64,000 bases of DNA. It comes from Sphaerochaetaceae bacterium. GTDB taxonomy: Bacteria; Spirochaetota; Spirochaetia; Sphaerochaetales; Sphaerochaetaceae. The stretch spans positions 11,405 to 75,404 of the forward strand of contig JAXEWB010000024.1 in assembly GCA_034114085.1 (NCBI GenBank), written 5' to 3'. The position numbers and the translations under genes are program-made. The notes below the pieces were generated by a model. That model did no database searches. It was given only the letters and a program-made list of their open reading frames with translations, and was not told where the DNA came from. Positions 3,519 through 46,324 of this stretch are shown in pieces; position 1 is the first letter of the stretch; every line of letters begins with the position of its first letter.

Positions 3519-4442
3519 TCAGCTTGGTTGGAAATCTTCTTCTCTCCAATCTCCGATCAATTTGATTTCGCGTTGGAGGTCAATGCCGGTAGCTTCCAGC
3601 ACCGTGCGTCTGGCGATCTCCGCCAATCGCCAGATATCCAAACTGGTCGCCTTGTGTTCTGGATTTAAAAAGAAATTTGCATGAGCGACGCTGATTTGCG
3701 CTCCTCCATACCGACGGCCCTTGAGTCCGCGTTCCTCTATGAGTTTGCCTGCGAACAGTCCTTCTTTCGGATTCTTGAACATGCTTCCAGCCGATGGATA
3801 GTCATATTGCCCCGTCTGCCTTCTTTTTGTTTTTGCCTGTTCCTTGCGAAGCCTCGCTTCGGCGGTCTGGTTCGTCGGCGCCAGCCTAAAGCCCGCTTCA
3901 AAAATGACCAAATCGTCCCTATCTGAAAAAGGAGAGTGCCTGTAGGAGAACAGATCTGTAGTCGCTTCCATTCTATGGAGGTTTCCGTCCAGCGTCAGAT
4001 AGTCGATGTATTCCAATGACTGGCTGATCTGTAGTCCCGGTACTCCTGCATTGCCCGCGATTGCACCGCCGACCGTCCCCGGTATGCCCCCCAGCCGCTC
4101 CATCCCCGCAAGTCCGTTCTCAATTGCAAAATTGATTGCCTTGTCTAACGATAAGCCGCATCGGCTACAGAGAAGTTCACCCCGTACATGGCAACTGGTA
4201 AGCTTGCGGGTGAACAACACCATTCCCCGGATACCCCGGTCGCTGACTAGGACATTCGAACCGCCGCCAAGGATAGTGAGCGGCAGTTGCCGTTGTCGCA
4301 CGAATTCTAGCGTTTCCCTAAGTTCTTGCAATGAAGTCGGAGTGGCCGTGTAATCCGCCGTACCGCCACATTTAAAGGTTGTATGTTCGGCAATGGATTC
4401 GTTTTGTGTAATCAGGTTCTCATATGATGATTGTTCGTCCAT
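3519..4442 (-). CDS. murB: UDP-N-acetylenolpyruvoylglucosamine reductase
   Basis: FAD-binding MurB motifs: TTFKCGGTADY, LTILGGGSNVLVSD, GIPGTVGGAIAGNAG, SAGSMFKNP. The start is placed at MDEQSS, which has an AAGGA RBS about 8 nt upstream. The ORF-track start at 4577 has no RBS. Confidence 0.9.
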   Translation of the reverse strand: MDEQSSYENLITQNESIAEHTTFKCGGTADYTATPTSLQELRETLEFVRQRQLPLTILGGGSNVLVSDRGIRGMVLFTRKLTSCHVRGELLCSRCGLSLDKAINFAIENGLAGMERLGGIPGTVGGAIAGNAGVPGLQISQSLEYIDYLTLDGNLHRMEATTDLFSYRHSPFSDRDDLVIFEAGFRLAPTNQTAEARLRKEQAKTKRRQTGQYDYPSAGSMFKNPKEGLFAGKLIEERGLKGRRYGGAQISVAHANFFLNPEHKATSLDIWRLAEIARRTVLEATGIDLQREIKLIGDWREEDFQPS

Positions 4443-43877: not shown

Positions 43878-45164
43878 TCAACCGGGCAGCATGATCCGTT
43901 CGACGGCCGCCGCAAGCCGGGAAGCGTCGAGATAGTCCGGTCCGAATATCCTGACTTTGCGTAGCGTAGAGGCAAAGGTCTGTACGACTGGTTCCGTAAA
44001 CAGCTCATCGACCTTGTTGAAAGGTCTGGTCGTTCCATTGTCATCGAGAACTGGAATGTCCGATTCAAACGATATCGGTTCAGGGATGTCGATGATCACT
44101 TCCCAACTTTTCAGTTGCGGGTATTCTTCGGATAGCGCCGCATACAGCTTTCCTTCGCATTCGAGACGGTTCTCTAATCGTTTGGCCCTCTGATGCAACG
44201 GCTCTGTTTCGGAATACTGCCGTTCATATCTACAGGAAAGCAACTGATTATCCTTGACCCGGCTGACCAGTTCAAGGGCGGGTGAATCCAGTAGCTCCGG
44301 CAACCTGAAGAACTGTTCATCGTCGATGCCATACAGGTCCTGAGCTTTGATAGTCCCTTCCCGCAGGGTCGTCAGCAACGCCTTCTTGATCATTGAAGTC
44401 GCGGCTCTGGTTCCCTTGTGCCAATATACGTTTTTGTACATCAGGTACTTACTGAACAACAGATGCTCAACCGAGCCCAGCGCATGGTTGGAAACCGCAG
44501 GGCGTCTGTTCGCCAACGCAAGCCTGTCTATAATATATGAGGCATCTTGCACTCCGTATGGAATCCCGCAGAAATATGCGTCCCGGCTCAGATAATCGAG
44601 TTTGTCCGGATCCAGCGTTCCTGACAGCAAGGCTCTGTAGAAACTGGTTTCTTCCGAACTGCTCGGCATTGAATCGTCGATAATGGCGCACACCTGCCCG
44701 ACATCACAGCCGATTTCCTCCAATGTCCGCCGAATCTGTTCGTCTTCCTGGATGATGACGGCGGCAAGGTGTTCATGTTCCTCCAGCGGCAGTTCCTTCA
44801 AAGAATGGGCGTAGGGAAAGTGACCGAGGTCGTGGAGCATCGCCGCCGCGAGAAACGCGAGCATTCCCCGTCTCGTAAGTAGCATCGCCCCCTGCTCCGA
44901 CCGTAGGAATGAGGTCAGCATGAGCCTGGCCACATGGTACACTCCGAGGCTATGGTCGAGCCTGGTATGGACCGCTCCCGGATAGACATGGAACGTAGGT
45001 CCCAGCTGTTTGATTCTCCCAAGTTTCTGGACAGCCGGTAAGCGGTATAGCTTGCTGAATCCCGGAGTGAGCATGATGTCCTTCCACAGGGGGTCCCTGA
45101 TGGAAATAGTGAAATCGCCGTAGAGAAATGCGAGATTTTCTTTCTGATTGCTGGTGTCGGTCAT
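43878..45164 (-). CDS. HD-domain phosphohydrolase (dNTP triphosphohydrolase/SAMHD1-like family)
   Basis: The HD-domain motifs are RIKQLGPTFHVYPGAVHTRLDHSLGVYHV and HDLGHFPYAHSLKE...DPDKLDYLSRD. The start is either 45164 (MTDTSN) or 45203. Confidence 0.8.
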   Translation of the reverse strand: MTDTSNQKENLAFLYGDFTISIRDPLWKDIMLTPGFSKLYRLPAVQKLGRIKQLGPTFHVYPGAVHTRLDHSLGVYHVARLMLTSFLRSEQGAMLLTRRGMLAFLAAAMLHDLGHFPYAHSLKELPLEEHEHLAAVIIQEDEQIRRTLEEIGCDVGQVCAIIDDSMPSSSEETSFYRALLSGTLDPDKLDYLSRDAYFCGIPYGVQDASYIIDRLALANRRPAVSNHALGSVEHLLFSKYLMYKNVYWHKGTRAATSMIKKALLTTLREGTIKAQDLYGIDDEQFFRLPELLDSPALELVSRVKDNQLLSCRYERQYSETEPLHQRAKRLENRLECEGKLYAALSEEYPQLKSWEVIIDIPEPISFESDIPVLDDNGTTRPFNKVDELFTEPVVQTFASTLRKVRIFGPDYLDASRLAAAVERIMLPG

Positions 45165-45248
45165 GGTCAGTCCAGTGTATGCGACTCTTCCTTTTCTGTC
45201 CACCCGTTCTCCGTCTGAGGACGCTGACCGGCATCGTCACTTCGTCAA

Positions 45249-45286
45249 GGCCGTACTGGAGTGCTATCCTCTCCTTGTTCCTTGCC
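45249..45286. repeat. copy A of an imperfect ~38-nt direct repeat
   Basis: Copy A (GGCCGTACTGGAGTGCTATCCTCTCCTTGTTCCTTGCC) aligns with copy B at 45351-45389. They share the ends GGCCGTAC.GGAGT.CT.TCC and GTTCCTTGCC. Confidence 0.7.
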
Positions 45287-45350
45287 ATTTCGCACCCCCA
45301 GACGGAGAAACTCTTAGTGGCCGGGACGCCATGCTGCGCTACGTTCACTG

Positions 45351-45389
45351 GGCCGTACCGGAGTACTGTCCCTGTTCCCGTTCCTTGCC
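45351..45389. repeat. copy B of the imperfect ~38-nt direct repeat
   Basis: Copy B is GGCCGTACCGGAGTACTGTCCCTGTTCCCGTTCCTTGCC. See copy A. Confidence 0.7.
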
Positions 45390-45487
45390 TGGTATCCCGT
45401 ATCTTTCGTAGAAATAGGGGATGTCGGTTGGCGTAGTTGCTTTGTCGAGGCTGTACTGCTAGCTTTTTCTCTGGCTTGTAGAAAATT

Positions 45488-45749
45488 CGTCCTTTAAGTG
45501 GGGATTGCGTCCTTTATGTGGGAGCTACCTGTCGCCTACGTCCTGTATCTATCGATTACGTCCTTTATGTTGTTGCTACGTCCTTTATGTCGGGATTGCG
45601 TCCTGTATGATGGGATTACGTCCTTTATGTCGGAGCTACCTGTCGCCTACGTCCTGTATGTCGGGATTACGTCCTGTATGTCGGGATTACGTCCTGTATG
45701 TCGGGATTACGTCCTGTATGTCGGGATTACGTCCTGCTTGCTGTTGCTG
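45488..45749. repeat. array of 12 head-to-tail tandem repeats, 20-bp unit, consensus CGTCCTGTATGTCGGGATTA
   Basis: Units start at 45488, 45508, 45539, 45559, 45579, 45599, 45619, 45650, 45670, 45690, 45710 and 45730.
- Four identical copies lie at 45650-45729.
- Copies diverge progressively toward the 5' side.
- Two 31-nt units (45508-45538, 45619-45649) share the same extra segment AGCTACCTGTCGCC. Confidence 0.95.
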
Positions 45750-45859
45750 TGGGTATCGTGCTGAACCCGTGGCGGAGTCGCGTCATCATGCTTATCGCTG
45801 TTTTACTGATTCCGCAATGGGAGTTTGACAAACGGCTGTCCATAAGGTACACCTAATAC

Positions 45860-46324
45860 ATGCGTCGAACCTGTATCGTTGGTGTTGCGGCATTTCTATT
45901 GCTTTTGATGCCCGTAGGTACGTTGAGTGCCGCGGTGGGCGTGCGGGATTATCTGCCGTCACGATCAGCTCCTGCGATTCTTCCTGTGGATTCAGTTGCC
46001 GGGCGTTTGGTCGAAGTATCTTCCGATCCGTTGTTGGAGCGGTGTGTCGAAGCGTTTTCCCAGCCTTGGTCGGCGCAATGGGTCGCGACCTATGTGGAAC
46101 CATCCGTCCGGTCTATGTTCACACATACTTGGGATGCAATGATGGTCGAGCAGCTGCCTGTTTCCTGTTTATTGTGTTCCGCTCCTGTCGGGGACGCCTC
46201 GACCAAGACGGTCGCCGTCAGATTCTTTCATTCGCAAGACAGTGCTTCCAGTGCTTATTCGCTCATTTGGAGTCTGTCCGAGACTGATGGGCAATGGTAT
46301 CTGATTGCGATGAGCGTTCTGTAG
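45860..46324 (+). CDS. hypothetical secreted protein
   Basis: 154 aa with signal peptide (IVGVAAFLLLLMPVGTLSA-AV). I recognise no domain. Confidence 0.55.
   Translation: MRRTCIVGVAAFLLLLMPVGTLSAAVGVRDYLPSRSAPAILPVDSVAGRLVEVSSDPLLERCVEAFSQPWSAQWVATYVEPSVRSMFTHTWDAMMVEQLPVSCLLCSAPVGDASTKTVAVRFFHSQDSASSAYSLIWSLSETDGQWYLIAMSVL

Follow-up and report, generated by a model that had tools for sequence, protein, structure and literature searches.

Structure of the array at its locus

We analyzed a stretch of 64,000 nucleotides (hereafter the window) from a Sphaerochaetaceae genome and concentrated on one element in it, a minisatellite array of 262 bp at positions 45488 to 45749 of the forward strand, which is probably one locus of a repeat family dispersed throughout this genome. 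The array separates two divergent genes, both outside the element: on its left, the reverse strand encodes an HD-domain/HD_assoc_2 protein of 428 amino acids (43878 to 45164), after which comes a gene for a PP-loop (TtcA-like) protein; on its right, the forward strand encodes a small protein of 154 amino acids with a signal peptide and no Pfam family (45860 to 46324). The neighborhood comprises an HD hydrolase, a TtcA-like protein, an alkaline phosphatase and YibE/F. The end of the array lies 110 bp from the ATG at 45860, and its start 324 bp from the HD gene start at 45164. These values agree with the 110 and about 325 bp given in an earlier annotation made from the letters alone, the original prediction, which had described the array as twelve head-to-tail repeats of 20 bp.

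Read directly, the interval consists of 11 full head-to-tail units, nine of 20 nt and two of 31 nt, and of a terminal degenerate unit, CGTCCTGCTTGCTGTTGCTG, so that the twelve-unit description is borne out with the last unit decayed. Tandem Repeats Finder recovered the period of 20 (10.4 copies, score 197) together with a higher-order period of 111 (2.1 copies, 87% matches, score 358), and a second repeat search of the window gave the same register. With at most one mismatch allowed, the 12-mer core ACGTCCTKTATG occurs at 10 sites in the window, all of them within the array, for 0.35 expected; none of 100 shuffles reached this number.

The direct read also confirmed that the four full units nearest the 3' end are identical and that units 2 and 7 are 31 nt long. 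The first unit, CGTCCTTTAAGTGGGGATTG (45488 to 45507, forward strand, as are all units), opens the array in every recovered allele whose contig reaches this edge, namely in the window, in L101 and L102, and in the Logan contigs L103 to L107 (L numbers designate retrieved loci). Unit 2 (45508 to 45538) is composed of a head and two tails (ATGTGGGAGCTA and CCTGTCGCCTA) and has a single mismatch to a 31-mer that is canonical in the family; unit 7 (45619 to 45649) is itself a canonical 31-mer, with identical copies in two other arrays. Units 8 to 11 (45650 to 45729) are four identical copies of CGTCCTGTATGTCGGGATTA; the block is missing from the alleles of strains L101 and L102 and is a recent local expansion, of a unit found in 29 copies across 13 other arrays. 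The terminal decayed unit (45730 to 45749), which opens with CGTCCTGC, forms a fixed right edge, common to all alleles except for a 1-nt deletion in L102/L090.

The array is not an assembly artefact, because identical or allelic copies recur in independent assemblies: a 100% copy of its sequence is present in a Joint Genome Institute (JGI) contig (L001/L108, sample Ga0117888), allelic versions are found in one NCBI metagenome-assembled genome (MAG) and in one ENA assembly, and Logan short-read contigs terminate inside it when approached from either side.

A coding role was rejected, as the original prediction had anticipated: the periods of 20 and 31 are not multiples of 3, unit variants with ATGA bring stop codons, and every unit carries a TAA on the reverse strand.

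The same units recur at many loci of the genome

Looking for other copies of the array and for copy-number variation in related genomes had been proposed in the original prediction. We scanned the JGI metagenome collection with a pattern of two cores in 20-nt register (CGTCCTKTATG-N9-CGTCCTKTATG). The scan returned 38 stretches, which correspond to 31 distinct arrays once duplicates between two assemblies of the same sample are removed. All 31 sit on eight Ga0208436 contigs, from 37 kb to 788 kb long and totaling 2.97 Mb. We conclude that these contigs belong to the genome of the window, because the Ga0117888 contigs are identical to parts of them, because their tetranucleotide signature matches that of the window (r = 0.986, compared to 0.964 between the two halves of the window), and because the EF-G and ProS genes beside two of the arrays have their closest named relatives in Sphaerochaeta or Sphaerochaetaceae MAGs. 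The array of the window itself was not returned by the scan, so that the genome holds at least 32 arrays, a lower bound.

Together, the 32 arrays contain 466 full units, of which 374 are 20 nt long and 90 are 31 nt long, the last two being fused 40-mers; they occupy 10.35 kb. The 466 comprise only 77 distinct sequences, dominated by about 12 types. Ten of the 11 full units of the window array are letter-identical to units at other loci. This changes the reading of its heterogeneity. Units had seemed to decay steadily toward the 5' end, but the differing units are canonical subtypes of the family; likewise, the 31-mer of units 2 and 7 is no insertion peculiar to this locus but a standard member, making up 90 of the 466 units. 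Sharing extends beyond single units: heterogeneous blocks of up to 95 nt, comprising four different units, are letter-identical between arrays at different loci.

Each unit is built from a constant head, (TA)CGTCCT-(T/G)-(T/C)-A-T, and one of about five 12-nt tails (GTCGGGATTA, GATGGGATTA, GACGGGATTA, GTGGGGATTA, GTTGTTGCTA and CTATCGATTA / CTGTCGYCTA), and the family 31-mer is a head carrying two tails (ATGTCGGAGCTA and CCTGTCGTCTA). Across the 466 units, T19 is invariant and A9 is conserved at 99.5%, with positions 7, 13, 15 and 17 almost free. Heads that depart from this pattern, CGCCCT or CGTTCT for instance, are rare and found mainly at array edges. At 10.5 bp per turn, the two lengths amount to 1.9 and 2.95 helical turns; they differ by 11 nt, and TA steps at 8/9, 19/20 and 30/31 are spaced by about 10 to 11 nt, so that helical phase is roughly preserved.

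Arrays are organized above the level of the unit. The 31-mers return every one to four 20-mers in all arrays and are almost never adjacent. The duplication of a five-unit, 111-bp block proposed for the window array is thereby superseded as an event private to this locus. Many arrays contain higher-order repeats, as L062 does with (L-a-L-d-c-a)x4 (L, a 31-mer; lower-case letters, 20-mer tail types), and runs of identical units reach four in the window array and up to ten in L052. About 18 of 30 arrays open with a degenerate 31-mer or a CTGTCG-type tail (...CTAYCTGTCGYCTA), and in 23 of the 30 arrays listed, CGTCCTGC plus a decayed unit closes the array; the left boundary is not tied to one phase of the unit.

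Contigs of long- and short-read assemblies alike start or stop inside family arrays, as in L052 (1 to 236) and L085 (13713 to 14099), and also at L002, L091 to L093, L103 to L107 and L111. The arrays are a systematic cause of assembly breaks in this organism.

The interior of the array varies between strains

Other strains were found by exact-sequence look-up of both flanking proteins; all strains looked up have an identical HD protein. At the window locus, full units number 11, 10 and 7 in the complete alleles, which agree in their first and last units. The NCBI MAG GCA_965348075.1 (L090/L102), which is 99.09% identical to the window over 20.5 kb, carries an array at the same position that starts with the same units and is a few bp shorter than the 262 bp of the window, its terminal unit lacking one base; its interior has ten full units, three of them 31-mers, and no block of four identical units. 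The ENA assembly ERZ27298066 (L101) has seven full units, one of them a 31-mer, in 171 bp. Partial alleles in Logan contigs from several runs add more versions of unit 2 and of the final full unit. Strains differ, then, in the order and type of units as well as in their number, and the window locus is a true variable number tandem repeat (VNTR), with fixed edges and a rapidly rearranging interior. Among the roles first considered for the array, that of a variable, expanding satellite is the one that these alleles support: three complete and further partial versions exist among strains with one and the same HD protein.

Genomic placement and flanks

All family arrays are intergenic. By a heuristic based on long open reading frames (ORFs), eight lie between genes that both follow the array strand, six between genes that both oppose it, five between convergent genes and three between divergent genes. 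The neighbors are ordinary chromosomal genes, for EF-G, a P-type ATPase, ProS, RpoN, ribosomal protein S7, DeoR regulators and transporters.

[quoted passage not shown] Transposition would account for the dispersal, many arrays have their openings and endings in common (a degenerate 31-mer tail at the start, CGTCCTGC at the close), and the polarity of arrays described below is reminiscent of IS200/IS605 elements, which transpose as single strands. The family moreover closely resembles BrickBuilt of Porphyromonas gingivalis (PMC4596501). The flanks, however, give little room to this explanation. In an all-against-all BLAST of 500-nt flanks, only four isolated pairs were similar; no 8-mer was present in more than 5 of about 30 flanks, and no conserved leader or tail emerged. 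Inverted repeats of at least 8 nt between 80-nt flanks were seen at one of 29 arrays (L065), where the match of 8 nt is at chance level. Target-site duplications were not consistent: direct matches between flanks were 6 to 8 nt long and mutually unrelated, decayed units excepted. An all-against-all BLASTP of 182 flanking ORFs grouped only generic paralogues, with no recurrent transposase or integrase. Added to this, the units form no hairpins and the left boundary occurs at varying unit phase. We therefore regard a mobile element as quite unlikely.

In one pair of arrays, L074 and L077, the left flanks match over 97 nt (92% identical) and the right flanks over 28 nt; at least these two arose when a segment containing an array was duplicated. 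Other short tandem repeats directly adjoin some arrays: CTCGGTGACTA is repeated at least six times in L051 (about 1140 to 1210), a 16-nt unit is present two or more times in the right flank of the L058 array, and two copies of TTGTTGTCGA abut the array of L053 (about 2765 to 2800).

A second possibility is that the arrays are transcribed repeat RNA loci, either CRISPR-like or precursors of tandem small RNAs. A perfect TTGACA-N17-TATAAT lies about 70 nt upstream of the array of L076 (about 2340 to 2420; the same array as L063) and reads into it, but no equivalent was found at other arrays, which have no leader or promoter in common and occur in either orientation relative to their neighbors. 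Nor were promoter or terminator motifs found inside the arrays examined for them (the window array, L052 and L062). As already recognized in the original prediction, the array is not a CRISPR: units abut without spacers, there are no cas-like neighbors, and the best CRISPR-DR match (15.6 bits, for a cut-off of 39) lies outside the array. More generally, no Rfam family relevant to the array passed gathering or E-value thresholds. Neither strand folds better than shuffled sequences, the z-scores being +0.76 for single-stranded DNA, and +0.48 and +2.62 for RNA of the forward and reverse strands, which disposes of a structured RNA or a REP-like hairpin as well. A repeat RNA locus is thus extremely improbable.

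The intergenic region and its putative promoters

Judging from the HD protein, which is 85%, 83% and 73% identical to its counterparts in the best species-representative genomes (L003, L004 and L005, respectively), the organism of the window is an uncultured Sphaerochaeta-like spirochaete. Gene order is kept in L003 and L004, and two blocks of the intergenic region are conserved. The first, TTGACAaac...ggTACACCtaa..ATG, is found in L003, L004, L094, L095 and L096; in the window it corresponds to TTGACA-N17-TACACC at 45825 to 45853 (forward strand), stops 6 nt short of the ATG of the gene for the small secreted protein and forms a conserved right boundary, outside the repeat. The second, gggTGGACAgaaa...TACACTggactgaccATG, is found in L003, L004, L005 and L095; a consensus scan places TGGACA-N17-TACACT at 45174 to 45202 (reverse strand), on the side of the HD gene, where it forms the left boundary of the variable segment. 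From their conservation, the two blocks are best read as promoters of the divergent genes, both of which would then have near-leaderless mRNAs. Both putative promoters carry an unusual -10 box (TACACT and TACACC).

Across species, the DNA between the blocks turns over while the blocks themselves persist. From gene to gene, the window has a spacer of 695 bp, L004 one of about 420 bp, and L003 and L095 one of about 130 to 140 bp. L003, L095 and L096 have no array at this locus. L004 (3605 to 3790; MAG CAYOWS01) has a different tandem array at the same intergenic site, made of the pieces GACATAG, GACATACG and GAGATAGACCCA with periods of 12 and 51; its only resemblance to the window unit is a TAT(G/C)TC sub-motif on the opposite strand. 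A degenerate version of this GACATAG/GAGATAC-type array is present in L094 (1 to 75), and the motif was otherwise absent from the fetched loci. In L003, the short spacer contains a 13-nt mini-repeat in 2.5 copies (3922 to 3953; GGTCGTCGGCTA/G) that is single copy in L095, and therefore even this spacer is prone to duplication.

These observations bear on the local roles first envisaged, that is, an iteron-like operator for the gene at 45860 or for the HD/ttcA genes, or a contingency locus tuning promoters through its copy number. The position between divergent genes and the strain-dependent length (262 bp in the window, a few bp less in L102, 171 bp in L101) would suit such roles. Yet the same units occur at 31 unrelated loci, five of them between convergent genes, both promoter blocks are kept beside their genes in sister species with no array, and no regulator gene is present at the locus, so that an iteron-like platform private to this site does not hold; nor is there a replication gene or a turn in GC skew nearby. 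As for the contingency locus, its variability is confirmed by the three complete alleles, but the promoter switch is not: the array lies 75 bp upstream of the putative -35 box of the small gene (45825) and 285 bp from that of the HD gene, and a change in its length therefore cannot shift the spacing between -35 and -10 boxes. Local models are, in our view, very unlikely.

Several other candidates were rejected. A phase-variable promoter repeat does not fit, the tract being neither in an ORF nor between the -35 and -10 boxes as we place them; a replication origin does not fit a window with no turn in GC skew and no replication genes near the array; a Chi-like skewed oligomer is not indicated by CGTCCT, seen 24 times outside the array for 21 occurrences of its complement.

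The left flank of the array (45240 to 45487, forward strand), which does not belong to the family, contains three diverged copies of a motif of about 45 nt (GGCCGTACYGGAGTRCT...GTTCCTTGCC) at intervals of about 100 nt. In strain L090, a 5-nt indel brings the third copy closer to the first. This motif was not found beside other family arrays and has a faint resemblance in L004. A scan of 45100 to 45487 for decayed family units, with a position weight matrix and an nhmmer profile, gave no match above 4 bits outside 45488 to 45749, and therefore the extra 260 bp or so on the left are not detectably derived from the array. Elsewhere in the window, and unrelated to the array, are a tRNA gene (49501 to 49573, forward strand) and a cobalamin riboswitch (56461 to 56642, forward strand; 104.6 bits).

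Age and range of the family

Two other loci could be compared with relatives. At the EF-G locus, the contig of a relative with 95% identity in EF-G (L111) begins inside a CGTCCT-type array at the same place, and in a relative with 91% identity (L110) the site is empty, its 514-bp spacer containing alignable sequence but no array. In the relatives compared for the proS locus (L088 and L098, about 80% identical), about 22 kb each contain no array; L086 and L087 are too short to judge.

Across the JGI metagenomes, pattern matches came from the window organism only, with a single exception. In L072 (JGI24025J20009_10013631), from an unrelated AT-rich bacterium, the contig ends in at least four tandem CGTCCTTTATGTCATTCCCG units (1 to 100), next to GIY-YIG and RimO-like genes; their 13-nt head is the same as that of the family and their tail differs. 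This match may reflect chance or a shared theme. The pattern had no match in viral contigs, in phage genomes or in 72,556 plasmids, which speaks against a mobile-element origin. On these data, the family is restricted to the lineage of the window.

A probable interspersed minisatellite family

Taken together, the data are best explained if the array is one locus of a species-specific, hypervariable minisatellite family interspersed throughout the genome of a Sphaerochaeta-like spirochaete, an interpretation to which we give a probability of roughly 70%. The repeat family is previously undescribed; the kind, interspersed bacterial minisatellites, is already known. To judge from array structure, arrays would evolve as whole units and multi-unit blocks are gained, lost or replaced. 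Slipped-strand mispairing and unequal exchange within the array are the likely processes, because runs of identical units and higher-order repeats are present, and recombination or gene conversion between arrays probably contributes, because identical multi-unit blocks are present at different loci and the set of units is common to all. Locally, the array would be passenger DNA lodged between two divergent, near-leaderless promoters, which enlarges a spacer of some 130 to 140 bp in a sister species to 695 bp. There is no indication that the flanking genes need it, and an annotation as a regulatory element or an origin is unwarranted.

Several features sit uneasily with this interpretation. Over 466 units, the head and T19 hardly vary while other positions are nearly free, an unevenness that exceeds simple neutral drift and could reflect recognition by a protein or by an amplifying machinery. 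The difference of 11 nt between unit lengths, which roughly keeps helical phase, hints at a DNA-level constraint. Along contigs, array orientations cluster, with 19 neighboring pairs in agreement and 4 in disagreement (binomial p = 0.003), and in 23 of 32 cases (p = 0.02) the flanks show a negative GC skew when read in the direction of the array, the window array being an exception. This suggests a possible polarity linked to replication, and a purely passive satellite need not be polar. Finally, this interpretation does not account for the dispersal of arrays to new loci.

The same features constitute the case for the main rival explanation, according to which the arrays are genome-wide binding platforms for one sequence-specific DNA-binding protein with a nucleoid-organizing, segregation or fork-related role. 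One protomer would occupy each constant head (TACGTCCT..TAT), and the 20/31-bp phasing would allow a putative polymerization along the array. Invariant heads with variable tails, unit lengths that differ by about one helical turn with TA steps in phase, and an orientation clustered along contigs and correlated with GC skew are all compatible with it, and cooperatively bound, phased direct repeats have precedents in plasmid iterons and in the 20-bp repeats of pSK41 parC. On the other hand, the content and length of arrays differ freely between strains, orthologous sites in close relatives have no array, 326 kb of sequence contained no solo unit outside arrays, the head hexamer shows neither enrichment nor strand skew beyond them, and no candidate protein gene recurs beside them. 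Common descent followed by homogenization can also give invariant heads. We consider such platforms unlikely, though less so than the other alternatives.

A bolder variant, which is rather unlikely, is that a machinery acting in trans (a recombinase, a polymerase or a DNA-binding protein) reads the TACGTCCT head and seeds, extends and homogenizes arrays throughout the genome, with a polarity tied to replication. If so, the machinery would co-evolve with its repeat, each Sphaerochaeta species having its own satellite 'dialect' (CGTCCT here, GACATAG/GAGATAC in L004/L094), and bacteria would have their own form of concerted satellite evolution, with a dedicated factor behind it.

Interspersed minisatellite families that are 'naked' are rare in bacteria, MIRU, BrickBuilt and STRR being the main examples. 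The minisatellite family described here offers a clean case for the question of dispersal, with at least 32 arrays, a small and discrete set of units, and two unit lengths about one helical turn apart; fixed edges around hypervariable interiors, an apparent polarity and the different array of a sister species at the same site are further assets. On the practical side, the arrays explain the breaks in short-read assemblies of this organism, and they would offer high-resolution strain typing of this Sphaerochaeta lineage in metagenomes by schemes of the multi-locus VNTR analysis (MLVA) type.

Comparison with known repeat systems

Iterons and centromere repeats such as pSK41 parC are likewise direct repeats of about 20 bp arranged head to tail, with a helical phasing that is roughly integral, and with units of 20 and 31 nt the present arrays are helically phased as are the direct repeats of about 17 to 22 bp in iterons. 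However, iterons and centromere repeats are found at one or a few loci beside rep or par genes, whereas here at least 32 chromosomal loci have no such neighbors. With REP/BIME elements, the family has in common that it is abundant, intergenic, clustered and species-specific; REPs, in contrast, are imperfect palindromes in alternating orientation, associated with RAYT transposases, and the present units are strictly direct and do not form hairpins.

The STRR (short tandemly repeated repetitive) sequences of heterocystous cyanobacteria are heptamers in tandem, specific to a lineage and dispersed over numerous sites that are mostly intergenic; no function has been established for them. The present family resembles them in its lineage-specific short tandem units and in their dispersal over many sites, mostly intergenic in STRR, and differs by units of 20 and 31 nt with a substructure of head plus tail.

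MIRUs (mycobacterial interspersed repetitive units) are described as lying in the same orientation as operons and as carrying small overlapping ORFs. The present arrays do not share these two features, since they lie between genes in all four configurations, and unit variants carry stop codons. Their units (20 and 31 nt) are also shorter, unrelated in sequence and from a different phylum, and strains differ in the order and type of units beyond copy number. As in MIRU-type VNTRs, nevertheless, tandem units with no spacers occupy many intergenic loci, here as there tens of chromosomal loci of one genome, and vary between strains; both families have several classes of unit length and no transposon-like ends, and the mechanism of dispersal is established for neither. 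In M. tuberculosis H37Rv, MIRUs are repeats of 46 to 101 bp at 41 loci, 12 of which vary in copy number between strains (PMC3914561).

A close parallel is BrickBuilt of P. gingivalis. Its arrays are framed by a conserved leader and tail with terminal inverted repeats and contain promoter elements (PMC4596501), whereas in the present arrays the flanks are unique, and both inverted repeats and promoter-like motifs are missing. BrickBuilt consists of spacer-less 23-nt units, conserved in their first half and variable in the second, at 19 intergenic loci that add up to 10.3 kb (PMC4596501). Both families thus combine spacer-less units of about 20 nt, a conserved first and a variable second half, some 20 to 30 strictly intergenic loci amounting to about 10 kb per genome, and a narrow host range.

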